A stretch of DNA of 64,000 nt from the NCBI GenBank assembly GCA_965199495.1, contig CBDASK010000003.1, positions 4,128,001 to 4,192,000 on the forward strand, written 5' to 3'. Source of the DNA: Abditibacterium sp. GTDB lineage: Bacteria > Armatimonadota > Abditibacteriia > Abditibacteriales > Abditibacteriaceae. Position 1 is the stretch's first letter. Every line of letters starts with the position of its first letter. Both the position numbers and the translations under genes were made by a program. Of the stretch, positions 1-64,000 are shown in pieces. The notes under the pieces are model-generated. The model made no database searches. It was given only the letters and a program-made list of their open reading frames with translations, and was not told where the DNA came from.

Positions 1-1952
1 GCGCCGACGTGGCTCAGTTGGTCGAAGGCGTCACCAAGCTCAAGCACATTCGTTTCGATACCAAGGCCGATAAACAAGCTGGGAATTTGCGCAAATTGTT
101 TTTAGCGATGTCGGGCGATGTGCGCGTGATTATCGTCAAGCTCGCCGACCGTTTGCATAATATGCGGACTTTGGATCCGTTCGAGCAGCGCAAGAAAATC
201 GAAATTTCCGAAGAGACGCTCTATATTTTTGCGCCAATCGCGCACCGTCTGGGCATCTGGCGCATCAAGTGGGAACTCGAAGACCGTTCGTTCAAATATC
301 TCGAACCTGACGTTTACAAACAGATTTATTCCCTCGTTTCGCGCACGCGCGCGCACCGCACGCAGCAGGTGCAACGCGCCATCCAAAACCTCACCGACAA
401 ACTCGCTTCCGAAGGCATCAAAGCCGAAGTGACCGGGCGGCCCAAGCATTTTTATTCGATATACCAAAAGATGCTCAAGCAGGGCCTCAAATTCGACGCG
501 ATTCACGACTTGATCGCCTTGCGCGTCGTCACGCAATCGGTGCCCGATTGTTATCACGCGTTGGGCGTCGTTCACGGTTTGTGGATGCAGGTGCCGGAAA
601 TGTTTTATGATTATATCGCGAAACCTAAACCGAATAATTACCAGTCTTTGCACACCAAAGTTTTGGATAATGAAGGCGAAATTTTAGAAGTGCAAATTCG
701 GACTTTAGAAATGCACCGCAACGCCGAATTTGGAATTGCCGCACACTGGCGTTATAAAGCCGACCAGCCCGCCGAGAAAGCCTTTGGCGACCGTCTTAAC
801 TGGTTGCGTCCGGTGTTGGAAATGCAACAGGAATCGAGCGAAGATAATCAATCGTATCTCGACAGTTTAAAAATAGATTTGGCGGCGGAACAGGTATTCT
901 GTTTCACTCCGCATGGCGACGTAATTTATTTGCCCAACGGCTCGACGCCGATTGATTTCGCTTATCGCGTTCACTCGGAAATCGGCGACAAATGCACCGG
1001 CGCCAAAGTCAACGGGCGCATCGTGCCGCTCAGCCATAAATTGCACAACGGCGATATTTGCGAGATCGTCACGAGTCGCAACTCCAAAGGCCCCAAACGG
1101 GGCTGGCTCGATTTCGTCACGACGCCGCACGCCAAAGCGCGCATCAAAGCGCACTTGCGCCGTTTGGATTTCGACATCAATTATCGGCAGGGTTTGCAGC
1201 GCTTGGAGAAAGCTGCGCGCTCGGAACGCCTGAAATTGGGCAACTTGGCCGAAAACGCGGCCATCGAAACCATAGCCAAACAGATGGGGCAAAAAAGCGC
1301 GGGCGAGTTGGTCGCGGCGATTGGCTATGGCGAGTATTCGGGCGAAAACGTGTTGAATCGGATTCGCACCGAACTCGAAACCGAAAATCGCACCTGCGAC
1401 AGCGCCGAAGAAGTTTCGGGAGCAGCCACGGCGCTGCTGCAGAAGCGGCCCAACCTCGAAATCGTCGAACAGCAGACGCAGGGCGAACTGGCGTTTGGTG
1501 AGAAAAAAGAAATAGAGTTAGACCCGACCCATGCCGAGGGTTTGTCGTATCATCTGGCGCGTTGTTGCGCGCCGATTCATGGCGACGATGTGCGCGGTTA
1601 CGTCACGCGCGGGCGGGGCATTTCGGTTCACCGCGACGATTGCGCGAATTTGCGTCACTACGAAACCCTCGAACCCGACCGCATCGCGCCCGCCGTATGG
1701 GCCGACAATAGCGCTAAACCTTATCAGGCATTGATCGGCGTCGAATGCACCGACCGTAGCGGACTTTTGGCCGATATTACCGTTTTAATCGCGGGCAAAG
1801 GTGTTAACATTAACGCAGTCAATACATATCCGTTAAAGCACGGCAGGGCCAGATTAAATTTCGCTGTTACTATCGGTGGAGCGATGCAATTGGATGATTT
1901 AATGCGCGTGGTTAAAAGCGTTGAAGGCGTGGTTAATGTGCATCGTGTGTGA
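1..1952 (+). CDS. relA: Bifunctional (p)ppGpp synthetase/hydrolase (Rel/SpoT), 5'-truncated by window edge
   Basis: KLADRLHNMRTL, APIAHRLG, GRPKHFYSIYQKM, YQSLHT, EVQIRT, TGS domain (FTPHGD...DFAYRVHS), CC/ZFD (ARCCAP...HRDDC) and C-terminal ACT. Confidence 0.96.
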   Translation, partial: ADVAQLVEGVTKLKHIRFDTKADKQAGNLRKLFLAMSGDVRVIIVKLADRLHNMRTLDPFEQRKKIEISEETLYIFAPIAHRLGIWRIKWELEDRSFKYLEPDVYKQIYSLVSRTRAHRTQQVQRAIQNLTDKLASEGIKAEVTGRPKHFYSIYQKMLKQGLKFDAIHDLIALRVVTQSVPDCYHALGVVHGLWMQVPEMFYDYIAKPKPNNYQSLHTKVLDNEGEILEVQIRTLEMHRNAEFGIAAHWRYKADQPAEKAFGDRLNWLRPVLEMQQESSEDNQSYLDSLKIDLAAEQVFCFTPHGDVIYLPNGSTPIDFAYRVHSEIGDKCTGAKVNGRIVPLSHKLHNGDICEIVTSRNSKGPKRGWLDFVTTPHAKARIKAHLRRLDFDINYRQGLQRLEKAARSERLKLGNLAENAAIETIAKQMGQKSAGELVAAIGYGEYSGENVLNRIRTELETENRTCDSAEEVSGAATALLQKRPNLEIVEQQTQGELAFGEKKEIELDPTHAEGLSYHLARCCAPIHGDDVRGYVTRGRGISVHRDDCANLRHYETLEPDRIAPAVWADNSAKPYQALIGVECTDRSGLLADITVLIAGKGVNINAVNTYPLKHGRARLNFAVTIGGAMQLDDLMRVVKSVEGVVNVHRV

Positions 1953-1960
1953 ATTATAAT

Positions 1961-2058
1961 TAGCCACAAAAAGGCGCAAAAGAAACAATTTATTGGAAGC
2001 ACTCGCTATTGCGCAGTTGCTTCCAATAAATTGTTTCTTTTGCGCCTTTTTGTGGCTA
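1961..2058. repeat. Perfect 41-bp inverted repeat between convergent genes (palindromic element, probable bidirectional terminator)
   Basis: TAGCCACAAAAAGGCGCAAAAGAAACAATTTATTGGAAGCA at 1961-2001 and its exact reverse complement at 2018-2058. Confidence 0.9.
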
Positions 2059-2059
2059 T

Positions 2060-3670
2060 TCAATACACATCGCGTCCGTAGCGTCCATCTTTGCTCATTT
2101 GCGCGACATAGGCTTTGGCTTCGTCTTCCGATTTGCCGCCGTGCTGGGCGATGATTGAGTGCAGCGCCGCGTCCACATCTTTGGCCATGCGCGAAGCGTC
2201 GCCGCAGACGGTGAAGTGCGCGCCCTCATCCAGCCACCGCCACAACTGCGCGCCTTCTTCGAGCATGCGGGTTTGCACATAAATCTTCGCGTCCTGATCG
2301 CGCGAGAACGCCAGACTGAGTTTGTTCAACACGCCCGACGCTTGATAATCCTCGATTTCGGATTGAAACAAAAAATCGGTTTCGCGCTTTTGGTCGCCGA
2401 AAAACAGCCAGTTTTTGCCTTGCGCTCCGGTCGCCGCGCGCTCTTCGAGAAACGCGCGAAACGGCGCGATGCCGGTGCCGGGGCCGACCATAATGAGCGG
2501 CGTGTCGCCGTTTGTCGGTGGCCGAAAACCGTGGCTCGGCTGCACAAAAACGCCGACTTTGCCGTGCGTCAACGCGCGGTCGCCCAAGAAAGTTGAAGCT
2601 ACGCCTTTGCGCGTGCGTTCGCCGCTCAGACCCGAATAGCGCACCATGCCGACGGTGAGATGAACTTCATCAGGATGCGCGCGCAGCGAACTCGAAATCG
2701 AATACAAACGCGGGCGCAGTGGCGATAGTTTGGAAATCAGAAAGCCGACGTGCGAAGCCGATGTCGGGCGCGCCGAGGGATGATCGTGCAAAATATCCAA
2801 AACGTCGCGGCCTTCGAGATAATTGCCCGCATCGGTCGCGGCCAATTCCTCCAATTTGGCGCGGTCGTCGGCGTTAGCGGCCAAGCCTGATAAGGCTTCT
2901 AAAAACTCGTCCGAAACGCGATTGACGACATAAGCCGCCGAAAGCGCGATGCGCGCGGGAATGACGCGGCCTTCGGGCGAATGCGTCGGCTCGTCGCCGG
3001 TCGCTTGCAGTTCGTCCAAAATGTCCTTCACCAGTTCGTCGCAGTTTTCGGGATAAACGCCCAACGCGTCGCCGACTTCATATTTTAGACCCGAACCGCG
3101 CAGACCAAACGAAACGAAGCGCACATCTTTCTGCGAATCTTTGCGCGTTAGAGGGCGAATTTCTAAAATCGGCGCCGGAAACGGATTGTCGCGCGTATAG
3201 AGCGGCGTCTCCGCATTTAAGTCGGGCGGCGTGGCTGCTGTTGTTGAGGGCGCGGCGGGAATATCGGCGCCAGCAGGTTTGAGGGTGATGAGTTCTTTGA
3301 GTTTGTTTTTGGTTTCGCGTCCGCCCGGCGTGCATTTCGAGATGTCTGCGTCGGCGCCCGACGCAATCGCTTCGGCGTAGGTCTGGCAGACGTAGCCGCA
3401 CGAACCGCAGTCGAGTTGCGCCATCGCCGCCATCAAAACGCGCGAGTAGGGCTTATCCTGCGCCAATTCCAAACGCTCGTCGAGGGCGAGCGCCGGGTCG
3501 TGCCACGCAAACTCTTCGTCTTCTTCGACAACGCTTGCGACAGTTTCATCGGTGGCGACAGAAACTTTGCCGCCTTCATCGAGATTGAGCAGACCCGCGA
3601 AAAAGCCGTTGAGCCAGGCGCGCTGCGACGCCGAAAACGGCGCGGATTCGGGAAGTAGAGGGAGAGACAT
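2060..3670 (-). CDS. CysJ-like FAD/NADPH flavoprotein with N-terminal Fe-S domain, likely electron donor to NirA
   Basis: CGSCGYVC...CTPGG Fe-S motif, RLYSISSS, GVAST, MVGPGTGIAPFRAF, WLFFG, VCGDA, C-terminal RYGRDVY; start taken at MSLPLLPE (3670). Confidence 0.88.
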   Translation of the reverse strand: MSLPLLPESAPFSASQRAWLNGFFAGLLNLDEGGKVSVATDETVASVVEEDEEFAWHDPALALDERLELAQDKPYSRVLMAAMAQLDCGSCGYVCQTYAEAIASGADADISKCTPGGRETKNKLKELITLKPAGADIPAAPSTTAATPPDLNAETPLYTRDNPFPAPILEIRPLTRKDSQKDVRFVSFGLRGSGLKYEVGDALGVYPENCDELVKDILDELQATGDEPTHSPEGRVIPARIALSAAYVVNRVSDEFLEALSGLAANADDRAKLEELAATDAGNYLEGRDVLDILHDHPSARPTSASHVGFLISKLSPLRPRLYSISSSLRAHPDEVHLTVGMVRYSGLSGERTRKGVASTFLGDRALTHGKVGVFVQPSHGFRPPTNGDTPLIMVGPGTGIAPFRAFLEERAATGAQGKNWLFFGDQKRETDFLFQSEIEDYQASGVLNKLSLAFSRDQDAKIYVQTRMLEEGAQLWRWLDEGAHFTVCGDASRMAKDVDAALHSIIAQHGGKSEDEAKAYVAQMSKDGRYGRDVY

Positions 3671-3752
3671 GGGAAAGGATAAAGGCTGAGGGATAAAGGA
3701 TGAAATTGGGTTGAAGAAATTTTTATTCTTCATCCTTTATCCTTGTTTTTGT

Positions 3753-3834
3753 CCACGTCTTTCTGAACGAGGCGAGAGCGCAACGGAAGCCCCGTTGAAT
3801 ACGTTGCGTTCTCGCCACGCTCAGAAAGACGTGG
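3753..3834. repeat. Imperfect palindromic element between nirA and the flavoprotein gene
   Basis: CCACGTCTTTCTGA..GGCGAGAGCGCAACG pairs with CGTTGCGTTCTCGCC..TCAGAAAGACGTGG. Confidence 0.75.
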
Positions 3835-3918
3835 GAAAAGTCGGATATTGGATAACAGATTTCGGATGGCAGATAGCGGAATGGGCCAAGAGAATTAAAC
3901 CATAAGGTAATCTTCAAC

Positions 3919-5730
3919 CTATCCGATATCCGAAACACAAATCGCGCTCAAATCCTCCGTTGTCTGGCGCGCGCTCCAACTGTAAAAGCTCTCCAACACG
4001 TCGGCGCGCCCCGACAGATACGCTTGCAGCAACTTACGCGTCACAATCGGCGCGTTGTCCGCCGTCACGTCGCGCGCGATTTCGCGGGCGATATTCTGCT
4101 GGTCTGCGTAGCCACCGCCGACATAAAGATGATAACCCTCGACTAAATCTTCGTCGGGCGCAACCTCGACTTTGGTGCCCATCCATCCGATGTCGCCGAT
4201 ATAATGCTGGGCGCACGAGTTGTTGCAACCCGTCAAATGAATGTTGATGTTTTGATCGAATTCGATCTGGCCATCGAGAAAATCGGCGATTTGCAGCGCG
4301 TGCGTTTTGGTATGGGCGTTGGCATACTTGCAGCCCGCCGCGCCCGTGCAAGCCACCAAACCCGCGCGCACGCCCGACGCCTGAAAATCCAAACCCAACT
4401 CCAACAGACGCGATTCGACGGCAGGTTTAGCAGCATCGGGAATGTCGGCGATCAGCAGGTTTTGCCAGACGGTCAAGCGGCAATCGCCGCTGCCGTAAGC
4501 GTCGGAAATCTCGGCCAATCCGCGCATTTGCACGCTCGTCATGCGACCAACCGGTAGCACGACGCCGACATAATTCAAGCCGTCCTGCTTTTGTGCGTGC
4601 CAACCGATGTGACCGGCGCGATCTAACGGCGGACGCGTTTCGCATTCCGACAACGGCAGTTTGAGCGATTCTTCGCCCCATTCTTTGAGGGTTTCTTCGA
4701 GAAATTTCTCGTGGCCCCATTCGTCCAAGAGGTATTTGAGCCGCGCCTTTTTGCGGTCTGCCCGGTTGCCGTTTTTGATAAACACGCGCACCGCCGCCGC
4801 CGCGAACGGTACGCATTGTTCGGGCGCCAGCAAAACGCCCTCATCTTTCGCGAAATCTTGGTGGCCAGTAATGCCGCCAAACGCGCAGCGAAAATAGACG
4901 CCGGGCGCATAAGGCACCGGCTCGGTCTGGCGCAACTCAACAGCGCTAAAACCGATGTCATTGGTTTCTTCGAGCGTGGCAATCGCGCCGCCGCCATCGA
5001 ACGAGATATTGAACTTGCGCGGCAAACCATACATCTCGCGGTGATTGAGAATATAATAGTGCATCTCACGCGCGAGTTCGCGCACGTCATACAACTCGTG
5101 CGGATCTAAACCCGCCGTTGCTGAACCAGTGACGTTACGGATATTATCGGCGCCCGAACCGCGCGCGACCAAACCGGCTTCGTGCAACGCCAGCAGAAAA
5201 TCAACGGCATCGGCGGCTTTAATTTCGCGAATTTGCAGATTGCCGCGCGTGGTGCAATCGGCGTAGTCGCCGCCGAACTTTTTAGAAATGCGCGCCATCG
5301 AACGCAGCTGATCCGACGAAATCAAGCCGCCGTAAAAGCGCAGACGGCACATATACGAATCCTGCGCGGGCGCGACGTAAAACAAGCCGTGATATTTCCA
5401 CATCAACACATCGGTGCCCTTGGGAAATTTATCGGATTTGGCGTGTTCCACGATTTGATCCCAGCGGTCGAATGGATGCAGTTCGCACTTGGCTTTCTCT
5501 TCGGGCACCAGTTTTTTGCCCGCCTTTTCCTGCGCGGCAGCGGCTTGCAAAGCCAATTTGTCCGGCCCTTCGAGTGCAGCCACGTCCGCCGTGGCTGCTG
5601 TTTGGCCATTGGCGAACGAGGGTAAACCGCGTAAATTGCGTGTCAGACCGGCTCCGGCGGTGAAGCCGGAGAGGTATTCTTTTTGTTCGGCGGAAAAATC
5701 TTGCGCAAGGGTTTCGAGGGCTTCGCTCAT
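3919..5730 (-). CDS. nirA: NirA-family siroheme/[4Fe-4S] nitrite reductase
   Basis: MCRLR, TTRGNLQ, ADNIRN, LPRKFNI, ACTGAAGCKY and TGCNNSCAQH siroheme/Fe-S ligand motifs. Confidence 0.9.
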   Translation of the reverse strand: MSEALETLAQDFSAEQKEYLSGFTAGAGLTRNLRGLPSFANGQTAATADVAALEGPDKLALQAAAAQEKAGKKLVPEEKAKCELHPFDRWDQIVEHAKSDKFPKGTDVLMWKYHGLFYVAPAQDSYMCRLRFYGGLISSDQLRSMARISKKFGGDYADCTTRGNLQIREIKAADAVDFLLALHEAGLVARGSGADNIRNVTGSATAGLDPHELYDVRELAREMHYYILNHREMYGLPRKFNISFDGGGAIATLEETNDIGFSAVELRQTEPVPYAPGVYFRCAFGGITGHQDFAKDEGVLLAPEQCVPFAAAAVRVFIKNGNRADRKKARLKYLLDEWGHEKFLEETLKEWGEESLKLPLSECETRPPLDRAGHIGWHAQKQDGLNYVGVVLPVGRMTSVQMRGLAEISDAYGSGDCRLTVWQNLLIADIPDAAKPAVESRLLELGLDFQASGVRAGLVACTGAAGCKYANAHTKTHALQIADFLDGQIEFDQNINIHLTGCNNSCAQHYIGDIGWMGTKVEVAPDEDLVEGYHLYVGGGYADQQNIAREIARDVTADNAPIVTRKLLQAYLSGRADVLESFYSWSARQTTEDLSAICVSDIG

Positions 5731-5905
5731 ACTTTAAAGAATGAGCGGATGATGTTTCGTTTGTCCGCCGCGCGATGTTTGCTTTAGGTGAACTTTCGGT
5801 TAACGGAGTGTTTCGGATGTCGGATATCCTATGCCAGATATTCGGATTGTGCGAGGCAGGTGAAGTCTTCCCTTAGCGCCATCTGATATTCGTTATCCAA
5901 AATCC

Positions 5906-13094: not shown

Positions 13095-15086
13095 TTACTT
13101 CAAATTCTTCACCGCTTCCACGACGTGGCTGCTCGTCATACCCAGCTCTTCCATCGCGGTGTCGCCGGGCGCGCTCAACCCGAAACGGTCAATGCCGAGG
13201 GGAATTCCGCCGAAACCGACGTATTTCCACCACAAATAGGTGACGCCCGCTTCAACCGAAACGCGGCGCGTGATCTTCGACGGCAAAACCGATTCTTTAT
13301 ATTCATCTTCCTGGCGCTCGAAACGCTCGAAGCACGGCATCGAAACGACTCTGACGCCGCCGCCCAATTCTTTCGCCGCAGCAACGGCGAGTTGAACTTC
13401 CGAACCGGTCGCGAGGATAATCGTGTTCAACTCTTCGGTTTCCTTGACCAAAACGTAGGCGCCCTTGAAAACGCCTTCGCGCCGCGTCGCGACATCAGCC
13501 ACGTCGAGGAACGGCAAATCCTGACGGCTGAGTGCCAGCAATGTCGGGCCATCTTTTCTGTCCAAAGCCGCGACAAACGCGGCGGCGGTTTCTTCGGCGT
13601 CGGCGGGGCGAATCACGTCGAGATTGGGAATCACGCGCAAACCTGAAACGGTTTCGACCGGTTGATGCGTTGGGCCGTCTTCGCCGACGCCGACTGAATC
13701 GTGGGTGAAAATATACAAGACCGGCAAATGCGACAGCGCGGCCAGACGAATCGGCGGGCGACAATAATCGGCGAACACCAAAAACGTCGCGCCCGACGGA
13801 CGGAAAATGCCGTCGTAGGCGATGCCGTTCAAAATCGCGCCCATCGCGTGTTCGCGAATGCCGAACCAGATATTGCGGCCCAAAACGTCTTCCTTGGAAT
13901 AGTCGCCGCCGTCTTTGATATAGTTTTTGGTCGAGCCGAACAAATCGGCGCTGCCGGTAATCAGAGCGGGGACTTTCTCGGCCAAAACCTGCATGATTTC
14001 GCCGCCCGCATTGCGCGTGGCTGCTTTCTTTTTCTCGCCGCCAAATTCGGGAATCGAAGCCAACAAATCGGCGGGGATTTCGCCGCTCAAGTTGGTTTCG
14101 AGTTCTTCTTTCAAGGCCGGATTGTCTTGGCCCCACGCTTCGTAGGTGCGATTCCAATGCTCGTGCTGCTCGGCGTGCTGCTTTTTCAAATCACCGAAAT
14201 AATCGCGCACGTCGGGGCCGATATAGAAATTTTCGTCGGCGGGCAAACCCAGCAATTCGCGCGCGGCGGTTAAGAATTTGACGCCGCCTTCGCCGTGCGC
14301 TTTCTGGCTGCCAGCGATCTCGACGATGCCGCGCCCGATTTCGGTTTTGGCGACGATGAGTTTGGGTTTGCCATTTTTGTTCGATTTGGCCGCGTGAATC
14401 GCCGTCGAAATCTCGCCGAAATCGTGGCCGTTGATGACTTGAACGTCCCATTCGATGCTCTCGAACTTCTTCACCACATCGCCCGATTGCGTGACTTCGG
14501 CCATCGCGTCGAGCGTGACGCCGTTGGCGTCATAAATCAAAATCAGGTTGTCCAAACCCAAATGTCCGGCCAGCGTCACCGATTCCAGACCGACACCTTC
14601 CTGCAAACAGCCGTCTCCGCACAGACAAATGACGTGATAATCCAGAATTTTGGCGCGCGCCGTATTGAATTTTTCCATCGCGCGCTTGGCCGAAATCGCG
14701 TAGCCGACCGAGTTGCCGATGCCCTGACCGAGCGGCCCGGTCGTGGCTTCAACGCCGGGCGTTTCGTGGAATTCGGGATGGCCGGGCGTAATCGAATGCA
14801 ACTGGCGAAATTTGGATAAATCGTCGGTCGAAATGTCGTAACCCGCGATGCACAGCCACGAATACAGAAACATAGAGCCGTGTCCGGCGCTCAAAACGAA
14901 GCGGTCGCGGTTGAGCCATTTTGGGTCGGCGGGATCGCATTGAATAAGGCCGCCGCCCCACAAAGTCGCGCCAATTTCGGCGCAACCGAGCGGCAAACCC
15001 AAATGGCCAGAATTAGCTTTGTGGACGGCGTCCATCGCGAGGCCGCGCATTTGGTTGGCGGCAGTTTGAAGAATTTCGGTATTCAT
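13095..15086 (-). CDS. tkt: Transketolase
   Basis: [56 protein letters not shown]. Confidence 0.97.
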
Positions 15087-46142: not shown

Positions 46143-47789
46143 TCACTCGCTCTCGCGTTCGTAGCACGAATAATAATACGGCGTGGCTGCCTCAAACTCA
46201 CCGGCGCAGGTGTCCACCATTTTATACGCTGGAACGATGCCGAACTCTTTGCGCCGCGCGCGAATTGTCATTTCGTCAATGCCGGTCAACTCGGAAATAT
46301 GCGCGTCGTGGAAGCCCAAATGTTTGGCTTTGTCCATCAATTCGGGCGTCAGTTCGTCCAACTTCAGGCCGCGCAGCAATTTCTCCATATCGGATAATTT
46401 CGCCAGTTTGCGCAAGAACCAGCGATCAATGCGCGTGATTTGAAAAATCTCTTCGACCAACAAGCCCCGGCGAAACGCCTCGAAAATCATGAAGATGCGC
46501 TCGTCGGTCGGCACGCGCAATTTTTCTTCCAATTCCATTTCGGACAAAGACGACGTGCCCTTCTCGCGCAAACCCGTTACGCCAATTTCGAGCGAGCGCA
46601 ACGCCTTCATAAACGCGCCTTCAAAACTGCGGTCAATCGCCATGACTTCGCCGGTCGCTTTCATCTGTGTCGTCACGCGCCGGTCGGAGCCTCCGAATTT
46701 ATCGAATGGCCAACGCGGAATTTTGCAGACGATGTAATCCAAAGCTGGCTCGAAGCAAGCCAACGTTTTCTGCGTGACGGCGTTTTGAATTTCATCAAGA
46801 TGAAAGCCGATGGCGATTTTCGCCGAAACGCGCGCAATCGGATAACCCGTCGCTTTCGAGGCGAGGGCGCTCGAACGCGAGACGCGCGGATTGACTTCGA
46901 TGACGTAATACTGGCTCGAATTCGGATCAATCGTCAATTGCACGTTGCAGCCGCCTTCGATGCCCAGTTCGCGGATAATATCGAGACTGGCGCTGCGCAA
47001 CATTTGATATTCTTTGTCGGACAACGTCTGCGAGGGAGCCACGACGATGGAGTCGCCCGTATGAACGCCCATCGGATCGAAGTTTTCCATGTTGCAAATC
47101 GTGATGGCGGTGTCGTTGCCATCGCGCATCACTTCGTATTCGACCTCTTTCCAGCCGACCAGATAACGCTCCAGCAAAATCTGGTGAATTAGCGAACGTT
47201 CGAGGCCGGACTTAACGAATTGTTCGAGTTGTTCATCGTTCCACGCGATGCCGCCGCCAGTTCCGCCCAGCGTGTAGGCCGGGCGAATAATGAGCGGATA
47301 GCCCATTTTATCGCGGAACTCGCGCGCCTGGTCGGCGGTGTCGCACACGACCGATTCGGGAATCGGCTGGCCGATGCGCTTCATCGTCTCTTTGAACAAA
47401 TCGCGGTCTTCGGCTTTTTTGATCGAATCGAGCGGCGTGCCGAGCAATTTGACGTTGTATTTTTCCAAAATGCCAGCTTCGGCGAGTTGGTAAGCCAAAT
47501 TCAAACCGGTCTGTCCGCCCAGCGAAGGCAGCAAACCGTCGGGCCGTTCGAGCGCGATGACCTGTTCGAGAAACGGTAGCGTCAAAGGTTCAATATAAAC
47601 CGCGTCGGCGGTTTCGGGGTCGGTCATGATCGTCGCCGGATTGGAGTTGACCAGAACGACGCTAACGCCTTCTTCGCGCAATGAGGCGCAGGCTTGGGTT
47701 CCGGCGTAATCGAACTCGGCGGCCTGTCCGATGACGATGGGGCCGGAGCCGATGACCATGACTTTTTTGATGTTGGGATTTTTGGGCAT
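46143..47789 (-). CDS. carB: Carbamoyl-phosphate synthase large subunit, N-terminal half only (548 aa)
   Basis: [55 protein letters not shown], ends at [24 protein letters not shown]. Confidence 0.95.
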
Positions 47790-52571: not shown

Positions 52572-53870
52572 CTAAAGAACGCGTTTGCCAGCGACGAAAG
52601 TCGCTTTAACGCGGCCTTTCACCGTTTGGCCCAGCCACGGCGAGTTTTTCGACTTCGACGCGATAGCAGCCACGTCGAGCGTCCACTCTTCGTTTGCGTC
52701 GAAAACCGTTACGTCGGCGCGCGCACCAACGTCTAAAGTTCCGCCTTCTAATCCCAAAACGCGCGCGGGCGCAATCGTCATTTTTTCGATTAACTGCGAC
52801 AAAGAAAGCGGCCCATTTTTCACCAAAGTTTGCAGCGAAATCGGCAGACTGGTTTCCAAACCGATGATGCCAAACGGCGCCTGATCGAACTCGCGATCTT
52901 TCTCGTGCGCGGCGTGCGGCGCATGATCGGTGGCGATGCAATCAAGGGTGCCATCGGCGAATCCGGCGATAATGGCGTCGGCGTCTTCTTGCGTTCGCAA
53001 CGGCGGATTCATTTTGGCGTTGGTGTTGTAGCCGCGTACGGCTTCGTCGGTGAGTCCGAAATGATGCGGCCCCGCTTCGCTTGTCACGCGCGCCCCCATA
53101 ACTTTGAATTGACGCACAATTTCAATGGCGTTTTTCGCCGTGATATGCAAAATGTGCAAATGAACGCCGGTTTCGCGCGCCAGAGCGCACGCTTTATAAA
53201 CCGCGATTTCTTCGCTCACGCGCGGCATTCCGCGCAAACCCAACTCATTAGAAACCGCGCCTTCGTTCATCACGCCGCCGCCTTTGCCAACTCCGGCGTG
53301 GCCGCCGCCCGTCAGCGCGATGTCTTCGCAGTGCAGCATCACGCACAAATCGAGCGTATTGGCGTACTGAAAAACGCGGCGCATGAAATCGGCGTCTTGA
53401 AGCGGAAACGCATCGTCGGAAACCGCGACGGCTCCGGCGCTTTTGAGGTCGGCGAATTCGGTCAACGCCTCGTTTTTGGCCGCGACCGAAATCGAGGCAA
53501 TCGGCAAAACGCGCACGCCATTGCCCTCGGCTTTCGCGCGATTCAAAATATCTTCGACGACGCTGCGATTATCAATGGTCGGCACTGTATTGGGCATCAC
53601 GCAAACCGTAGTAAATCCGCCCGCCGCCGCCGCCGCCGTCAAAGTTTGCGTGTCTTCTTTATATTCCTGGCCCGGCGTGCGCCCATGAACGTGAATATCA
53701 ACGAAGCCGGGCGCAACGATTAAATCGGTCGCATCGAACATCTCGGCGTCGTCCGCCGAGATGTTCGGGCCGATTTGCGCGATTACGTCGCCGTCGAGCA
53801 GCACATCAGCGAGTTGGTCGAAATTGTTGGCGGGGTCAATGACGCGCCCGTTTTTGATGAGTTGTTTCAT
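52572..53870 (-). CDS. pyrC: Dihydroorotase
   Basis: PGFVDIHVH.R.PG, MPNT.P, HCED, KMNPPLR, IATDHAPH, SKSKNSP. Confidence 0.96.
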   Translation of the reverse strand: MKQLIKNGRVIDPANNFDQLADVLLDGDVIAQIGPNISADDAEMFDATDLIVAPGFVDIHVHGRTPGQEYKEDTQTLTAAAAAGGFTTVCVMPNTVPTIDNRSVVEDILNRAKAEGNGVRVLPIASISVAAKNEALTEFADLKSAGAVAVSDDAFPLQDADFMRRVFQYANTLDLCVMLHCEDIALTGGGHAGVGKGGGVMNEGAVSNELGLRGMPRVSEEIAVYKACALARETGVHLHILHITAKNAIEIVRQFKVMGARVTSEAGPHHFGLTDEAVRGYNTNAKMNPPLRTQEDADAIIAGFADGTLDCIATDHAPHAAHEKDREFDQAPFGIIGLETSLPISLQTLVKNGPLSLSQLIEKMTIAPARVLGLEGGTLDVGARADVTVFDANEEWTLDVAAIASKSKNSPWLGQTVKGRVKATFVAGKRVL

Positions 53871-55981: not shown

Positions 55982-56647
55982 ATGAACAATTCCGAATTCT
56001 CGCCGGTGAGCGGCGAAACCATTGACGGCGCTTTGAACTGGCGCTATGCGACCAAACAATTCGATTCGTCGAAGCAGTTGACGGACGAGCAGTGGAGCGT
56101 TTTGCAAAATTCGCTGCATCTGGCGGCTTCGAGCTTTGGCTTGCAGCCGTGGAAGTTCGTCGTCATTTCCGACCCGGACAAAAAGGCGGCCCTCGTGCCC
56201 GATGCGTGGGGCCAAAGTCAGGTCGCCGACTGCTCGCATTTGGTGGTTATCGCCGCCAAAAAGACGATGAGCGTCGAAGACGTTGACAAACTGATGCAAG
56301 CCACGGCGGCGGCGCGCGGCGCCGATGCGACTTCTCTGGACGGCTACAAAGGCATGATCGTCGGTGGCCTGAGCGCGCGCACGCCCGAATGGATCGCGGC
56401 CTGGAATGCACGCCAATGTTATATTCCTCTGGGATTTTTACTCCAGTCCGCCGCGCTAATGCAAATTGACGCCTGTCCGATGGAAGGTTTGGTGCCCGAA
56501 AAATTCGACGAGCAGTTGGGTTTGACCGATTCGGATTACACCTCGGTCGTAATGTGCGCATTGGGCTTTCGCGCCGACGACGATAAATACGCCGACTTGG
56601 CGAAAGTGCGCTACGAAACCAGCGATGTTTTCGAGTTCATCGGTTGA
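55982..56647 (+). CDS. NfsB-like NAD(P)H nitroreductase
   Basis: WRYATKQFD, AASSFGLQPW, DACPMEG, ALGFR..DD....KVR. Confidence 0.92.
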   Translation: MNNSEFSPVSGETIDGALNWRYATKQFDSSKQLTDEQWSVLQNSLHLAASSFGLQPWKFVVISDPDKKAALVPDAWGQSQVADCSHLVVIAAKKTMSVEDVDKLMQATAAARGADATSLDGYKGMIVGGLSARTPEWIAAWNARQCYIPLGFLLQSAALMQIDACPMEGLVPEKFDEQLGLTDSDYTSVVMCALGFRADDDKYADLAKVRYETSDVFEFIG

Positions 56648-56663: not shown

Positions 56664-56701
56664 AAGACGGCGTGGCTGCATTAAGCAGCCACGCCGTCTT
56701 T
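56664..56701. terminator. Terminator hairpin built from an inverted pair of the GCAGCCACG motif
   Basis: AAGACGGCGTGGCTGC-attaa-GCAGCCACGCCGTCTT, 16-bp stem between convergent genes. Confidence 0.85.
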
Positions 56702-56722: not shown

Positions 56723-57577
56723 TTAGCGATTCATATTCATATTCGCCGTCATTTGATTGATGTCGCGGACGATGGTGTCCATGCTCGTCATGTCAATCGG
56801 TTTGCCCATGAGCGCGGGCGTAACACCGGGTGGAACCGGCGGAAGCGGCGGGCGCAGTTCGCTGCCGGGCGCTTTGATTTGTTTGGCGACGTTGTAAATC
56901 AAAATCGTGTGGCCCACGATGTCGGGCAAATACTGGCCCGCATAGCCTTTGAGGGCATCGTCCATGCCCGCGTTGGTTTCGCTGGCAAAGAGCGCGATGG
57001 TGTTCTCGTGGTCGGCGGTTTGTCCGGCCATATACATTTTGTCGAAGTTATCGCTTTTCGCTTTTTTTAGCGCATCGTAGACCGCCATGTGAGGCGCGCT
57101 CAGCATCGGCATCATCGTCATGTTTTTGGCGCGCATCAGTTGCATCAAATCGTTCTGCGCTTTGGTGTGGCCCATCAAAATCACCTGCGCAGTCTGGCGC
57201 ACGCCCGCGTTTTTGGATTTATTCAGTGCCAACTGTGCGAAAGTGATTTCGGCCAGATTGCCCTCGGCGGCGCGCGCGCCAAACAGTTGGTCTTGCGCCG
57301 ACATCATGCCGGGCATCGGCATTGTGCCAGTCGCCATCATGCTCGGCGCTGGCGTCATGTTATCCTGCGTCATGTTGCCCTGCATCGAGTTTGCGGGCAT
57401 CGCGTTGGGCGGAGTGGGAATGTCGAGAATATCGTCGGCGGGGCGCACGAAACCGGGCGTCGTTCCGGGCGTGGTGTTGGGAATCATCGGCACCGTATCG
57501 CCCGCCATTTGCGCCTGAGCCGCAGCCGCCAGCGCGCTCAAAGCGGCGGCAGTGAGCAGAGAAGATTTGAGTTTCAT
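56723..57577 (-). CDS. Secreted DUF4142-domain protein with Met/Pro-rich N-terminus
   Basis: Signal peptide (AQA); DQLF...AAEGNLAEI..AQLAL, FDKMYM..Q..DH. Confidence 0.85.
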   Translation of the reverse strand: MKLKSSLLTAAALSALAAAAQAQMAGDTVPMIPNTTPGTTPGFVRPADDILDIPTPPNAMPANSMQGNMTQDNMTPAPSMMATGTMPMPGMMSAQDQLFGARAAEGNLAEITFAQLALNKSKNAGVRQTAQVILMGHTKAQNDLMQLMRAKNMTMMPMLSAPHMAVYDALKKAKSDNFDKMYMAGQTADHENTIALFASETNAGMDDALKGYAGQYLPDIVGHTILIYNVAKQIKAPGSELRPPLPPVPPGVTPALMGKPIDMTSMDTIVRDINQMTANMNMNR

Positions 57578-57810
57578 TGGAGTGAGAAAAGCCGCCATGA
57601 GAAGTGTTGTTGGTGCGGCTGAGAGCGGATTGTCAAATCGTATGCCCCGGATTGACTTAATCGAAGCGACAGGGGATTCACGCGCAAATTACAGGGAAGT
57701 CACCCGTGCCGCGTTGCGTCCCTTGGTTGGCTTTGACGCCAAACTGAAAGCCTCGATGGGACGCAATAAAACGCGACGAACTCCGCCCAAAATCGGGCAA
57801 ACTACGTTCG

Positions 57811-58494: not shown

Positions 58495-58586
58495 CGCGAA
58501 CTGACGTTTGCGAATCGCGGGCGAGTTGAACTTAAACGCACTTTCGGCGTCCGCCACACGCGCGGTTGGAAAGTGCCGCATTTCGC

Positions 58587-59243: not shown

Positions 59244-59667
59244 AGTCACTGGCGGCGTCAATCGCCGTCGCACGGCGCCGATGGCCGAAATTAACATCAT
59301 TCCGCTCGTGGACGTGATGCTGGTTCTGCTGATCATTTTCATGGTGACGACGGCGTTTACCAAAGACACCGAATTGGGACTGAAATTGCCTCAGGCCGCG
59401 AGCGGCGTTGCGGCGCCCCAGCAGAACCGCGATTTGACTATCGCCTTGACGCGCGCGGGCGCGCTCATTGCCGATGGCCAAAGCGTGACGCCCGCGCAGT
59501 TGCCCGCGTTGATGCGCGCCCGCCTGAAAAGCGACCCGAAAGTGAAAGTGATTATCAAGGGCGACGGCGGCGTGGCTTATGAGCGCGTGGTGAAAGTGAT
59601 GGATAGCGCGCGCCAGGCCGGGCTGACCAGCGTCTCGCTGGGCACGCGTCAATCCGACGAAAAGTGA
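59236..59667 (+). CDS. ExbD/TolR family protein
   Basis: EINIIPLVDVMLVLLIIFMV, IKGD..V.YERVVKVMD.ARQAG. Confidence 0.93.
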   Translation: MPKVTGGVNRRRTAPMAEINIIPLVDVMLVLLIIFMVTTAFTKDTELGLKLPQAASGVAAPQQNRDLTIALTRAGALIADGQSVTPAQLPALMRARLKSDPKVKVIIKGDGGVAYERVVKVMDSARQAGLTSVSLGTRQSDEK

Positions 59668-61124
59668 GTTGTGCGGAAACAGAACTTACGACGATGATGC
59701 GATTCGATTTGTCCAACTGGCGCCGGGGAATTTGGCCGCTCGTGATGGGTTCGCTGGCGTTGCACGCGCTGATCTTGTTGCTGGCAAGCCGCATCCCCGC
59801 CGCAGCCACGCCGCCCGACGAGCGCCTCGTCGAAGTTCAATTGGCGCCCGCGCCAACAGTCGTGCCAACGCGTCAACCGCCAGCCAAAACCAAGAAATCG
59901 CCGTTGCCCATCGCTACCAAAAAGCGCGCGATTCAGCCCCAACTAACGCAACCGCGCCAAAAGCCCAGAGTTGTGCCGACGCGCGCGCCCGTTGTCGCGC
60001 CGCTTCCCACGCCGATTGTGACGACTCCGCCGCCACGAAAGCGCGTGACGCCGGTCATCGCGCCAACGGCGTTGCCCGTCGCGACGGCTGTGCCGCAACC
60101 GAGCGTGGCCGCCACGCCGATTCCCCGGCGTTTGCCGCCTTCGTCGAACGCCGCGCCAACACCGACGGCGCCGACGAAAAGCAATTCGACCGGCACAGGA
60201 AAAGGCGAAGGGAGCGGCGAGGGCGCCGGGAAAGGCGAAGGAAACGGTGAGGGCGCGGGGAAGGGTGAAGGTAAAGGCGCGGGCAAAGGGAGTGGTGAAG
60301 GCAAAGGCGAGGGCAGCGGCAAAGGAAACGGAAACGGTAGCGGCGAAGGAGACGGAAACGGCGAGGGCAGCGGCAAAGGTAACGGAAATGGTAGCGGCGA
60401 AGGAGACGGAAACGGCGCTGGCAAAGGAAATGGTAACGGTAACGGTAACGGAAATGGAAGTGGCGACGGAAACGGCGCGGGTGGCGGGAACGGTTCGGGC
60501 GCTGGCGGCGGCGGAAATGGCGGAGGAGGAGGCGGAAAAGGGGGCGGCGGGCCGTTTGGTGTGGGCGGCGGGGGCGGGCAGGGCGCGCGGCGCATCATCT
60601 ATGTTTTGGATGTTTCGCCGAGCATGGAAGATCGGATGGAGCGCGCCAATGCCGAATTGAGTCAGGCGCTCGATAATCTGGTGCCGGGCGAAACCTTCGA
60701 TATTATCGCGTTTGATGCGAAGGCTTATCTGCTCGATAAAGCACTGTTGCCCGCGACGCCCGCCAACCTCGCGCGGGCGCGCAAGTTTCTGGAAGACCTG
60801 CGCTTGGATGTGCAAGAGGGCCGAAGTAATGGCACCAACTTGCAGCTGGCTTTGCGCCGCGCGCTGCAAACCCGCGCGGTCAACGTCGTCGTCGTTATCA
60901 CCGATGGCGAGCCGACCATCGGACAAACCGATTTCGCGGCGATTGCGAAAAAAGCGCGCCAGCTCAATAAAACTAAAGCGCGCATTGATACCGTCGGTCT
61001 GGTCGGGCACAACCCCGACGGTTCGCAGGATACGTTCGATGCCGGGCGTTTGCTGCAACAGATCGCCCGCGAAAGCGGCGGCCAATTCAAAGCCGTCGAA
61101 GACGAAGGCGCTGCACTGAAATAA
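59664..61124 (+). CDS. TonB-like membrane-anchored protein with Pro-rich and Gly-rich spacer and C-terminal vWA domain
   Basis: TM with SLALH (SxxxH), Pro/Thr-rich segment, GE/GN/GK repeats, MIDAS DVSPS...GTN...ITDGEPT; exact start uncertain (59664 or 59694). Confidence 0.85.
   Translation: MSCAETELTTMMRFDLSNWRRGIWPLVMGSLALHALILLLASRIPAAATPPDERLVEVQLAPAPTVVPTRQPPAKTKKSPLPIATKKRAIQPQLTQPRQKPRVVPTRAPVVAPLPTPIVTTPPPRKRVTPVIAPTALPVATAVPQPSVAATPIPRRLPPSSNAAPTPTAPTKSNSTGTGKGEGSGEGAGKGEGNGEGAGKGEGKGAGKGSGEGKGEGSGKGNGNGSGEGDGNGEGSGKGNGNGSGEGDGNGAGKGNGNGNGNGNGSGDGNGAGGGNGSGAGGGGNGGGGGGKGGGGPFGVGGGGGQGARRIIYVLDVSPSMEDRMERANAELSQALDNLVPGETFDIIAFDAKAYLLDKALLPATPANLARARKFLEDLRLDVQEGRSNGTNLQLALRRALQTRAVNVVVVITDGEPTIGQTDFAAIAKKARQLNKTKARIDTVGLVGHNPDGSQDTFDAGRLLQQIARESGGQFKAVEDEGAALK
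60306..60413 (+). repeat. 54-bp near-perfect tandem duplication inside the Gly-rich coding tract
   Basis: GEGSGKGNGNGSGEGDGN encoded twice (60306-60359, 60360-60413). Confidence 0.85.
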
Positions 61125-61195
61125 GCCGCCCAAACACCGCTTGCTAAACTCTAATCGTTGGCAGTCTGCATTTAGCACGCGCACTTCCGAAAATT

Positions 61196-62047
61196 ATGAA
61201 TAACTCACTTTCTCCGCTCGCTGTTGGCGTGATGACCGGACTTGCTGATGGCCCGCTCGCCGGTTTGCAAACCGTGCGCGACGCCGATATTGGAACGGTT
61301 CATTTGCAATATCCGGCGCGGTTCGACAACGCCGATGGCATCGAAGCGATTCGCGATGCCGTCCGTCAGACCGGCGTCGCGATTACCACGGTTTTCTGCG
61401 GTTTTGAAGGTGAATCTTACGCCGATATTCCCACTGTTATCAATACGGTTGGTCTGGTGCCCGAAGAGCCACGCGAAGCGCGCGTCGAGAAAATCGAGCA
61501 GATTTCCAAGTTCGCGCGCGAGTTGGGCGTGGCACGCGTCGGCGCGCACATCGGTTTTATTCCACACGACAAATCCGATCCGCGCTATGATGCCCTCGTC
61601 GAAACCGTGCGCGGCATCTGCGACGCGTTGGCGGCGCGCGAGCAGGTTTTCGCGCTCGAAACCGGACAGGAAACCGCCGAATCGTTGAAAGAATTTATTT
61701 CGGACGTGAAACGCGATAATTTAAAAGTCAATTTCGATCCGGCCAACATGATTTTGTATGGCACGCAAGAACCGATTCCAGCGACCGAACTGCTGTTTCC
61801 GTGGATTGATGGCGTGCATTGCAAAGATGGCACTTGGCCGACGCAGGAAAACCAATTGGGACACGAAACTCCGTTCGGCGCGGGCGCGGTTGATGCGGCG
61901 GCGTGGCTGCAAACATTGATCGAATTGGGCTATCGCGGGCCGTTGACCATCGAACGCGAAATTAGTGGCCCCGACCAATTGCGCGATATTGTCGCGGCGA
62001 AAGAGTTGATCGAAAGCGTTGTGGGCGAAGCGGGTGTTGAGAATTAG
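61196..62047 (+). CDS. Sugar phosphate isomerase/epimerase (AP endonuclease 2 TIM barrel)
   Basis: HIGFIP, LETGQE, NFDPAN, VHCKD, G.GAVD, GY.GPLTIERE. Confidence 0.9.
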   Translation: MNNSLSPLAVGVMTGLADGPLAGLQTVRDADIGTVHLQYPARFDNADGIEAIRDAVRQTGVAITTVFCGFEGESYADIPTVINTVGLVPEEPREARVEKIEQISKFARELGVARVGAHIGFIPHDKSDPRYDALVETVRGICDALAAREQVFALETGQETAESLKEFISDVKRDNLKVNFDPANMILYGTQEPIPATELLFPWIDGVHCKDGTWPTQENQLGHETPFGAGAVDAAAWLQTLIELGYRGPLTIEREISGPDQLRDIVAAKELIESVVGEAGVEN

Positions 62048-62081
62048 AAAAGAAATTTGATTCGCCAAGATAATATTAATT

Positions 62082-62120
62082 AAAAACGCCTCGATTGAAA
62101 ATTTCAATCGAGGCGTTTTT
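62082..62120. terminator. Bidirectional terminator
   Basis: AAAAACGCCTCGATTGAAA-a-TTTCAATCGAGGCGTTTTT. Confidence 0.88.
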
Positions 62121-62136
62121 GGATATGAATAAAATT

Positions 62137-62208
62137 TACCGACAGTAGGAATCGAACCTACATCAGCGGATTAGAAGGCCGCGGCTCTATCCATTGAGCT
62201 ATGTCGGC
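62137..62208 (-). tRNA. tRNA-Arg(TCT)
   Basis: GCCGACATAGCTCAATGGATAGAGC...CT-TCT-AA...GTAGGTTCGATTCCTACTGTCGGTA; no encoded CCA. Confidence 0.9.
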
Positions 62209-62289
62209 GATTTTGTAACGCGCGAGGAAAACGCGCATCAAAAAACGCAAAAAGCGCGATAAAAAATCGCGCTTTGAAGTTGCATTCTC

Positions 62290-62360
62290 AGCAGGGAACG
62301 GGAATCGAACCCGTACTATCAGTTTGGAAGACTGAAGTTCTACCACTAAACTACCCCTGC
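62290..62360 (-). tRNA. tRNA-Gly(TCC)
   Basis: GCAGGGGTAGTTTAGTGGTAGAAC-TTCAGT-CT-TCC-AA-ACTGA...GGGTTCGATTCCCGTTCCCTGCT. Confidence 0.92.
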
Positions 62361-62394
62361 GAATCTCGTTCTGGGACAACGAGAAAAATCTCTA

Positions 62395-62469
62395 TCGGGA
62401 CGACTGGATTCGAACCAGCGGCATCTTGCTCCCAAAGCAAGCACTCTGACCAAGCTGAGCTACGTCCCG
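62395..62469 (-). tRNA. tRNA-Pro(TGG)
   Basis: CGGGACGTAGCTCAGCTTGGTCAGAG-TGCTTGC-TT-TGG-GA-GCAAG...GCTGGTTCGAATCCAGTCGTCCCGA. Confidence 0.93.
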
Positions 62470-62533
62470 TAAAAGCGAAAGCGCAGTATGACGGTTTTAT
62501 GGGTTCGCGTCAAGCCCCATTTAAACCGCTGGT

Positions 62534-63586
62534 TTAAGGGACGCGCGCCTGAGCTGCTTTAATCAAAGCGGCTTTGGCGAAAGCGCCCCAAAACGGCGTC
62601 GGGGCGTAATTCCAGTTTTGGATCGTGCGCGGCGAGGCGTCGGGGTGAAACGTCCAGCCCGTCCAACTCAGATTGTTGCTGTCGAGGTAGGCCAAAATTT
62701 TGGGCGCCCACTCTTGCGGCGCGATTTTGGCGTTTTGCATGTCTTTGGGATCGGCGCCGACTTCACCCACGAAAACCGGGTAAGTTTTGGCGATCTCGCC
62801 GACGTGCGGATCCCAATTTTCGGGCGCGCTGCCCTTCCACGGATAGATGTGCGAGCCGTAAACGATGCCGCCTCCGCCCCGGTCATCGAGCGCGGCGCCC
62901 TGAGAAATTTGGGACAAATCGTAGCCCCAATCCAAACCGCCCGCGATCACCAGATTGCGCGCGCCGCCCGCGCGAATCACGCCGACCAGCTTCTGCATTC
63001 CCGGCGTGTGGTAAACCAAGGGCCGCTCCTGGATCGTCTCCTGCACCGCGCCACCCTCTTTCCAGACCTCCCAAGAAACGTCGTGCGGCTCGTTGTATAA
63101 GTCGAACAAAACGGCGGGATTGTTGGCGTAATGCTGCGAAACCATCGCCCAGAAAATTTGCGAGAAATCGTCGGGCATTTTGTGCTGCCCGATGTTCGCC
63201 CCCATCTGACCGGCGTTCGACCAGTGCAAATCGAGCGCGACGTACGCGCCCTTTTCGCTGGCCAAGGTCACGACTTGATCCACCAATCGCCGGTAGGCCG
63301 CGCCGCCATCGTCTTGGCCGGGCGCTGTGCCCAGCCAGCGATCTTGGGCCAAGGGCAGACGAATCACGTTGGCGCGCCAATCGTCGCAGGCGACACGCAC
63401 CGATTCGAGAACGTGATCGCCTTCGTTGCTCCATTCCAGAGAAGGCACGTTGACGCCGGTCAAACGCACCGCGACTCCGGCCTCGTTCAAAATGCGATTG
63501 CCCGCAGTGTGCAACGCCAAAGGCGCGCCGTGCGCCATCAACGTCAGCATCCACAAAAGCGTCATAACACCCAGAAACTTGAGCAT
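62534..63586 (-). CDS. Secreted glycoside hydrolase family 5 (cellulase-like)
   Basis: Signal peptide, GVN, NVIRLP, LDLHW, DLYNEP (acid/base), SHIY, VGEVG (nucleophile), WTGW. Confidence 0.92.
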   Translation of the reverse strand: MLKFLGVMTLLWMLTLMAHGAPLALHTAGNRILNEAGVAVRLTGVNVPSLEWSNEGDHVLESVRVACDDWRANVIRLPLAQDRWLGTAPGQDDGGAAYRRLVDQVVTLASEKGAYVALDLHWSNAGQMGANIGQHKMPDDFSQIFWAMVSQHYANNPAVLFDLYNEPHDVSWEVWKEGGAVQETIQERPLVYHTPGMQKLVGVIRAGGARNLVIAGGLDWGYDLSQISQGAALDDRGGGGIVYGSHIYPWKGSAPENWDPHVGEIAKTYPVFVGEVGADPKDMQNAKIAPQEWAPKILAYLDSNNLSWTGWTFHPDASPRTIQNWNYAPTPFWGAFAKAALIKAAQARVP

Positions 63587-63605
63587 GATAAAAATTCGAG
63601 CCAAA

Positions 63606-64000
63606 TCAAACCGCAGAGTTTCCCGATGTTTCCTCGGCAAACACCACGCTCGCCTCGCCCTCGCTCGCCACAATTTCGCCCAGCTCGAACGCTTTCACTC
63701 CCTGTTCTTTCAGGTGCCCAATCGTAGCAGCCACGTCGCCTTGCTCCACGACCAATACCATGCCGATGCCCATATTGAACGTGGTAAACATCTCGCGTTC
63801 TTCGACGCTGCCCTCACTTTGAATCAAATCGAAAATCGGTGGCATGGGCCAACTGCCGCGTTTAATCTGCGCCACAACATTTTCGGGCAAAGCGCGCGGA
63901 ATGTTCTCGTAAAACCCGCCACCTGTAATATTGGCAATCGCCTTGACTTCGACGGCTTCGAGCAACGACAAAACCGGCTTCACATAAATCTGCGTCGGCG
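63606..64000 (-). CDS. purM: Phosphoribosylformylglycinamidine cyclo-ligase, 3' part only
   Basis: PTQIYVKP, ANITGGGFYENIPRALP, EMFTTFNMGIGM. Confidence 0.93.
   Translation of the reverse strand, partial: PTQIYVKPVLSLLEAVEVKAIANITGGGFYENIPRALPENVVAQIKRGSWPMPPIFDLIQSEGSVEEREMFTTFNMGIGMVLVVEQGDVAATIGHLKEQGVKAFELGEIVASEGEASVVFAEETSGNSAV

Follow-up and report, generated by a model that had tools for sequence, protein, structure and literature searches.

A strand-specific spacing rule marks a candidate DNA uptake word in one Abditibacterium clade

Why should a run of ordinary housekeeping genes carry the same nine-letter sequence 32 times? The stretch concerned, called the window below, is the 64,000-nucleotide segment G000:C3:4128001-4192000 of an Abditibacterium sp. 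assembly (GCA_965199495.1, here G000; 4.81 Mb, 3 contigs), and the 9-mer, GCAGCCACG, had originally been predicted to be a signal of the kind known as the DNA uptake sequence (DUS) or the uptake signal sequence (USS). To our knowledge, the sequence-specific uptake of DNA has been established in only two families, both of them host-associated. We found the word to be real, selected or driven, and clade-specific, and did not find it in print in the literature searched. We read it as an orientation-sensitive signal for self-DNA uptake or transformation, which would belong to a third family and is confined to one Abditibacterium clade, and we give this reading a probability of about 0.6.

The word is longer than first described and sharply specified

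Every one of the 17 plus-strand and 15 minus-strand coordinates originally given for GCAGCCACG proved exact, and the 32 copies compare with 0.94 ± 0.85 in 100 dinucleotide shuffles of the window, none of which reached 32. The core AGCCACG, put at about 75 copies, was counted 78 times (47+31), against about 11 expected under order-2/3 Markov models. Genome-wide, G000 holds 1,783 copies of GCAGCCACG, and AGCCAC/GTGGCT is its most over-represented 6-mer. The 9-mer and the 7-mer are thus genuine, but the motif had been cut short, because it runs on at its 3' side as [G/C/T]CG. The full word is WGCAGCCACG[G/C/T]CG, an asymmetric, non-palindromic sequence of 10-13 bp, and copies of AGCCACGBCG were scored as strong sites. 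There are 2,801 of these in G000 (1,407 on the plus and 1,394 on the minus strand, which agrees with the strand balance originally claimed), or one per 1.7 kb, and 50 in the window (27 plus, 23 minus). Single substitutions were examined in the context AGCAGCCACGGCG (349 copies); changes in A-G-C-C-A-C-G or in the final C-G left 0-15 copies, and single core changes 0-4% of the consensus count. The base before CG is G (349), C (198) or T (139), and rarely A (12). Flank analysis of G000 showed that sequence information is confined to about 13 bp, with none beyond, which rules out a mobile-repeat origin in this genome.

Codon usage and replication direction do not account for the word

Genes were called anew on G000 (3,813 genes, 83% coding). 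Strong sites lie mostly inside them, as had been claimed: 91% are coding, with 64 per 100 kb within genes and 30 per 100 kb elsewhere. One could therefore envisage the word as a by-product, either of codon or amino-acid bias, of a decayed mobile repeat, or of the avoidance of direct repeats. The first of these gains from the fact that the word is mostly read as Ala/Val/Thr-rich peptides; among enriched tripeptides VAA ranks 2, AVA 3, AAT 5 and ATA 11. However, synonymous codons were shuffled in three ways (across the genome, inside each gene, or conditional on the adjoining bases; 5 runs apiece), which yielded 44-118 strong sites in the sense direction, where 1,129 are observed, and 55-73 in the antisense direction, where 1,416 are observed. 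AGCCACGBCG is thus enriched 10- to 26-fold over codon-preserving nulls, and in all six frames. The enrichment, which the original prediction allowed might vanish under a codon-aware null, stays, and its remark that the word is read in several frames with uncommon alanine codons was correct, GCA and GCT being the two rarest alanine codons. Codon or amino-acid bias is ruled out as the cause by these nulls, and we regard the by-product explanation as a whole as largely refuted and most improbable, for this and for further reasons given below.

Chi, read by RecBCD/AddAB, and the FtsK-orienting polar sequences (KOPS), read by FtsK, are both replichore-polarised. Like the G000 word they are short, asymmetric and read one way. 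We used GGGNAGGG, which we take to be the KOPS of G000, as a positive control; it places the replichore boundaries at about 2.02 and about 4.34 Mb, with 300 leading and 79 lagging copies. Strong sites, in contrast, number 1,407 leading and 1,392 lagging, with a flat distribution from origin to terminus, so that polarity of the Chi/KOPS type, named at the outset as a possible refutation, is ruled out. The most polarised 8-mer of G000 is GGGCAGGG (205 vs 20), a KOPS-like word in this phylum.

The word is scarce in DNA that appears to be acquired, in agreement with the depletion in islands that had been suggested as a check. Two small contigs of G000, which are probably plasmids, contain 0 and 2 strong sites where 14.6 and 38.3 are expected. 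Nineteen of 471 segments of 10 kb hold 0-1 strong site (mean 5.9); these are mostly low-GC blocks, the genes of which look phage- or island-like when judged by eye. The single 16S rRNA gene found holds 0 strong sites, with 0.9 expected.

Copies of the word repel one another on the same strand only

The original prediction described the copies as evenly spread. This is correct within each strand but not between strands. Same-strand pairs of strong sites at 45-600 bp number 122 against 460.6 expected, and opposite-strand pairs 462 against 460.6 (p 1e-47). The density of same-strand pairs relative to random is 0.11 at 0-100 bp, 0.37 at 500-600 bp and about 0.9 past 1.2 kb, a repulsion that reaches about 1 kb, whereas that of opposite-strand pairs is 0.9-1.2, apart from a 2- to 3-fold excess under 25 bp. 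Same-strand repulsion with random opposite-strand placement is, as far as our searches go, a new observation. In the literature searched, a scope that leaves aside some subscription works and one supplementary figure, no description of orientation-dependent spacing of uptake sequences was found, and a term search of a 2025 survey of 177 DUES genomes returned none of "orientation", "spacing" and "distance". A 1999 review of the USS and simulations of drive from 2010 may bear on the novelty of the spacing claim.

The exclusion scales with match quality (0.0-0.24 for best-best pairs, about 1 for weak-weak pairs), and among 1,542 frequent 8-mers the strongest exclusions all belong to pieces of this word. 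It is symmetric: with 233 vs 223, neither the 5' nor the 3' copy repels more strongly, and a directional repulsion was rejected. It persists across gene borders and between oppositely transcribed genes (5 vs 20), and therefore tracks the DNA strand; an effect of the transcribed strand is ruled out by the same gene pairs. How far two copies are identical makes no difference to the exclusion (0.26, 0.30, 0.19), and clustering instead of exclusion is seen for 89 other frequent 10-mers (2,284 vs 1,362); together these results reject selection against deletion-prone direct repeats, the third form of the by-product explanation. A site for an abundant double-strand chromosome-organising protein, which had been proposed alongside uptake, fits worse, because such sites should repel in both orientations and only same-strand copies are repelled. 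What we observe, then, is a per-strand saturating gain of an asymmetric word, with a length scale of about 1 kb, imposed on the proteins and confined to a clade.

Okazaki fragments are about 1 kb long. The exclusion length resembles this figure, as it would if a primase or helicase read the word on each template strand in order to prime or restart replication. Nevertheless, copies of leading and of lagging orientation are equally numerous and spaced alike (0.22/0.36/0.66 vs 0.15/0.31/0.73) although KOPS shows stable replichores, and ten members of the genus replicate without any such word; we consider a priming site quite improbable.

Close inverted pairs are enriched 2- to 3-fold in G000 and are mostly coding. 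The dispersed word and the copies in the window that we read individually are as follows.

5..63738, both strands: dispersed word WGCAGCCACG[G/C/T]CG, mostly within coding sequence
56664..56700: perfect inverted pair of two full words with a 5-nt loop and a T-run after it, read directly from the sequence
5576..5598: close inverted pair in a NirA-family gene (3919-5730, minus strand)
13121..13132, minus strand: single word in a transketolase gene (13095-15086, minus strand), a coding copy in a housekeeping gene
46179..46190, minus strand: single word in a carbamoyl-phosphate synthase large-subunit gene (46143-47789, minus strand)
52665..52677, plus strand: single word antisense to a dihydroorotase gene (52572-53870, minus strand), an antisense coding copy

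The pair at 56664..56700 lies between convergent genes (55982-56647, plus, and 56723-57577, minus), and by analogy with DUS and USS pairs it may be used like a terminator.

Established uptake words show the same strand rule

We examined spacing in genomes carrying known words. AAGTGCGGT marked two USS-rich genomes (G410 and G434) of 61 searched, and GCCGTCTGAA one DUS-rich genome (G507) of 51; the controls are modest, with about 400 kb analysed in one genome each (G434 and G507). At 45-300 bp, with all sites included, observed over expected pairs for USS were 5/36.0 on the same strand and 19/33.8 on opposite strands (p 0.003), and for DUS 18/55.4 and 37/55.4 (p 0.01). When sites in close inverted pairs were dropped (62 of 330 for USS, 192 of 417 for DUS), the difference was retained: 5/24.1 vs 19/22.0 for USS (p 0.002) and 6/16.2 vs 26/16.1 for DUS (p 0.0003). 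Chi in G401, by contrast, showed no same-strand exclusion at 45-600 bp (12 vs 11.4) and was polarised by contig, both among the first 100 of 1,300 sites. Both established uptake words thus have same-strand-only repulsion, on a shorter scale (0.3-0.45 kb, compared with about 1 kb for the G000 word), and Chi is without it.

These controls bear on another explanation, that the word is an intracellular recombination or repair site read in one direction, either an unpolarised Chi-like site or a loader or nicking site. It would act on broken ends, mismatch tracts or post-uptake single strands, and each strand would need a site every few kilobases. Strand-specific saturation is what any directional enzyme should produce, two-ended breaks or repair on either new strand need no polarity, and HIP1 is reported to act in part like Chi in transformation (10.1101/2024.09.10.611283). 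However, the one Chi control is polarised and lacks the exclusion; scarcity on small contigs and islands fits an outside filter, though it does not need one; and switching of words between lineages of one family, described below, is known for uptake dialects. We consider an intracellular site unlikely.

The word is confined to one clade and its sites are retained in close relatives

Word-rich genomes are 3 of the 401 searched in the phylum, and none of the others exceeds about 4 strong sites per 100 kb. Within the genus (13 genomes), enrichment is seen in G000, G011 (2,548 sites) and G004 (912), and the remaining ten have 41-105 sites, like a reversed control; 100-160 kb sampled from each of five of these, and 12-20 kb from each of the other five, revealed no comparable word. 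The three enriched genomes are monophyletic on a ComEC tree (100/100). In a scan of all prokaryotes for the pair, only five loci, from Abditibacterium or Abditibacteriales, had at least 5 strong sites among 80 flanked loci (at least 113 stretches), and of at least 120 IMG/VR virus stretches with an inverted pair none had more than 4 strong sites among the matches listed. Neither a paper joining an uptake sequence with an Armatimonad nor, by title and abstract, one on an Abditibacterium motif of this kind was found in the literature search.

Of 24 orthologous sites, 18 are retained in close relatives, where random 10-mers are retained at 29%; in word-free genomes the figure is 0-1 of 18-65. Five of 6 more distant comparisons show an amino-acid identity beneath the word that falls short of background, as has been reported for USS and DUS (PMC2817400).

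In G004 the core takes another form. It sits in a repeat that starts with GTAG and is arranged as inverted doublets with a spacing of about 44 bp (103 copies in the 240 kb of G004:C8:1000001-1240000). REP/REPIN repeats belong to RAYT transposases, and the G004 repeats resemble them as intergenic 60-70-bp hairpins, the arms of which contain the word core. The G000 word, unlike REP/REPIN, stands alone inside genes, without flanks or hairpin. Twenty of the 103 repeats fall in aligned coding DNA, which covers 62%. Total AGCCACG density is similar in the two genomes (84 per 100 kb in G004, 96 in G000), with fewer free copies in G004. The hairpin speaks for the decayed mobile repeat among the by-product explanations; yet free cores avoid repeat-borne cores on the same strand, unlike what is expected of a passive repeat. 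Two regions of G004 and two more word-rich loci, taken together, gave 5/14.0 such pairs at 30-300 bp and 6/15.5 at 300-600 bp. The most economical interpretation is that in G004 the repeat provides the signal and has displaced the coding copies.

Related genomes carry other words

Further words were sought in loci fetched through a giant pilin (described below) and in regions of genomes of the Abditibacteriaceae. G017 carries AGTACGGTCGA, with 217 copies in 200 kb (G017:C14:300001-500000) and 79 close inverted pairs, further pairs within 300 bp standing at 1/30 and 3/30. The palindrome TCGAGTACTCGA occurs 71 times in 60 kb of G020 (G020:C1:2700001-2760000) and also in G022, G024 and G250, and the palindrome GCAAGTACTTGC in G014 (about 3,290 sites; region G014:C6:300001-400000), in G018 (about 3,060) and in five metagenome loci. 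AAGTACGCCT is hyper-abundant in L241 and L244. In these regions and in L241, L252 and L253 such words recur about once per 1-1.5 kb, evenly spaced, mostly as palindromes or inverted pairs, and, unlike the G000 word, they are mostly intergenic. No such word was seen in G023, G228, G015, G013, G016, G019 and G021 (11-40 kb each) or in G026-G028 (6-8 kb). Several of the sister words are palindromes around GTAC. They share no single invariant core with the G000 word, although AGCCACGGCG can be aligned to AGTACGGTCG, and it is speculation that all descend from a common word. In G000 itself two tetramers are strongly avoided, CTAG (0.04 of expectation) and GTAC (0.11). The words of the family differ by lineage, in a manner that may be compared with the DUS dialects, the lineage-specific variants reported for that uptake word (PMC3630211).

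The cyanobacterial HIP1 is also hyper-abundant, lineage-wide and intragenic, and the palindromic sister words GCAAGTACTTGC and TCGAGTACTCGA resemble its kind; the G000 word differs in being non-palindromic. In Campylobacter, methylated RAATTY offers a HIP1-like comparison. By analogy, a lineage-specific methyltransferase might mark one strand and the mark be read in uptake or repair. AGCCAC, the top 6-mer and asymmetric, presumably resembles type IIG sites methylated on one strand, and the GTAC palindromes are in keeping with this explanation. On the other hand, ten sharply specified positions are many for a methylase, and no cognate enzyme confined to the three word genomes was found in two methyltransferase families (PF02384 and PF01555) in five relatives. 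One shared methyltransferase adjoins a DpnII endonuclease, and its orthologue in G006 (L292, G006:C42) is frameshifted; a second is also present in G009. We consider a methylation-gated signal improbable. HIP1 itself has been linked to transformation efficiency (10.1101/2024.09.10.611283).

Competence genes are present and two pilins are candidate readers

The type IV pilus and competence genes that the original prediction suggested looking for are present, including PilC, PilD and pilins. All 13 genus genomes have ComEC and 12 of the 13 have ComEA; DprA, together with several PilB/PilT ATPases, was found in 5 of 5. Alignments of ComEA, ComEC and DprA revealed no clade-confined feature. In the word clade the H-x-D-x-D-H motif of the ComEC metallo-beta-lactamase domain is changed; it is changed in another way in G009 and G010 and is intact in G006, G007 and G008; the ComEC frames of G005 (546 aa) and G012 (558 aa) are short.

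One pilus operon of G000 (C3:861101-880963) encodes pilB, pilT, pilC, pilD, four pilins and two tandem PilX-like pilins of 1,300 residues. The giant pilins are in tandem in all three word genomes and single at the locus in other genus members where found. This duplicated protein (G000:C3:872628-880963) is a candidate reader of the word. A model of residues 21-1220 (pLDDT 82.6, pTM 0.84) aligns with Thermus thermophilus ComZ (6qvi) along the whole chain (Z 8.7, 320 residues, root mean square deviation 10.2), but matches ice-binding beta-solenoids equally well (Z 8.0-8.7), and its N-terminus matches minor pilins (Z 5.9-6.4). As modelled, it shares with ComZ a pilin domain with an inserted beta-solenoid and a place at the end of a minor-pilin cluster, but has about 1,300 residues with extra beta domains, compared with 550 in ComZ. 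ComZ is reported to be a DNA-binding tip pilin without sequence preference, Thermus uptake being non-specific (PMC6561018). Sequence comparison of the giant pilin gave no Pfam family and no match to a solved structure, atlas leads stayed below 0.9, Foldseek gave nothing credible, and a first metagenome scan was without matches; its named homologues are from Abditibacterium, and the giant pilin of A. utsteinense shares only 33% identity with it. L233 has a single, 47%-identical giant pilin and 1 strong site in 23.6 kb.

A second candidate is a basic minor pilin (G000:C3:2782784-2783359), with a net charge of +15 in G000, +7 in G011 (88% identical) and +1 to +4 in distant homologues. The expectation of a ComP-like pilin was therefore answered in part: two candidates exist, but neither tracks the word cleanly. 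G000 has about 45-49 pilin-like genes, most of the DUF1559/H-X9-DG type. A 600-residue minor pilin in the operon (G000:C3:868592-870448) is 49% identical between G000 and G011, compared with 76-98% for its neighbours, and is likely under diversifying selection.

Weighing the uptake reading

The word shares with USS and DUS a length of 9-13 bp, asymmetry, a frequency of about one per 1-2 kb on both strands without polarity, tolerant positions in genes, enriched tripeptides, scarcity in acquired DNA, some inverted pairs at gene ends, variants among lineages of one family, an association with type IV pili and ComEC, and same-strand-only repulsion. It differs in having an unrelated sequence and host phylum, in being gene-dense, in the small share of close inverted pairs, and in that candidate pilins stand in place of a ComP/ComN-type receptor. 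Judged from sequence, it appears to behave like an uptake sequence in every genomic test run except for its share of terminators. The original uptake reading agrees with the depletion, lineage restriction, tolerant sites, competence genes and USS/DUS-like spacing, but an intracellular directional reader is still its rival.

We propose that biased uptake and recombination (molecular drive) would fix mutations that create the word. A protein at the pilus tip or entry pore would bind it in a fixed orientation, so that each copy would help one strand of a fragment of about 1-1.5 kb to enter or recombine, or would help the fragment to do so from one end. Another copy pointing the same way would add little, and an opposite copy would serve the other strand and still be favoured. 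The oriented step could take place at the pilus, at ComEC or in the cytoplasm. Because an orientation-blind receptor for double-stranded DNA would make all close copies redundant, orientation would have to decide which strand or end is used, and the oriented model would also account for the tendency of this family's words to become inverted pairs or palindromes. DUS spacing is reported to match the conversion-fragment length of 1.1-1.7 kb (PMC2397512), and single-stranded DUS of the Crick strand to be partly transforming (PMC12061091).

Several observations weigh against the uptake reading. The three word genomes are one clade, and so represent one evolutionary event, and the clade is known from assemblies alone. 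The spacing signature marks a directional reader and not uptake as such, and ComP reportedly favours DUS in double-stranded form (PMC12061091), while uptake reportedly did not rise when another USS was placed within 100 bp (PMC7811141); given these two reports, a strand-specific uptake step is something we infer. The word is denser in genes than between them, and close inverted pairs hold 5% of sites in G000 compared with 19% for USS and 46% for DUS. The G004 group keeps 17 of 121 sites, which is under the 20% background. The ten genus members that lack the word possess competence genes to the same extent. As for the candidate readers, giant-pilin paralogues are 57-59% identical between G000 and G011 despite the common word, extra paralogues occur where no word was seen (G012, G002 and G228), the word-bearing L252 and L253 have a single copy at the locus, and the basic minor pilin was not found in G004.

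A wider proposal, which we put forward tentatively, is that the Abditibacteriaceae are a third family with sequence-specific uptake, in which a giant ComZ-like tip pilin reads five or more words that are either unrelated or related only loosely, and that uptake words in general act strand-specifically. Among the family's word types one is asymmetric and intragenic, others are palindromic or paired, and one is REPIN-carried. If the proposal is right, strand-specific action of DUS and USS would explain their inverted pairs and provide a genomic test that is blind to function; the possession of its own series of words by a free-living soil lineage would indicate that self-recognition arose independently and turns over fast. 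Sister clades with and without the word within one genus would be a natural comparison, and same-strand repulsion would predict how uptake or later recombination uses the orientation of the signal.

Other features of the window and genome

The carbamoyl-phosphate synthase large-subunit gene at 46143-47789 (minus strand) covers only profile positions 2-545 of 1052, and carB appears to be split or halved. Three tRNA genes lie at 62137-62469 (minus strand). Elsewhere in G000, the repeat families beginning GTAGAGACACC and GTCATTCTGAGC are without the word, and a CRISPR-like array at G000:C3:2766484-2775007 contains 131 repeats with a 66-bp period.

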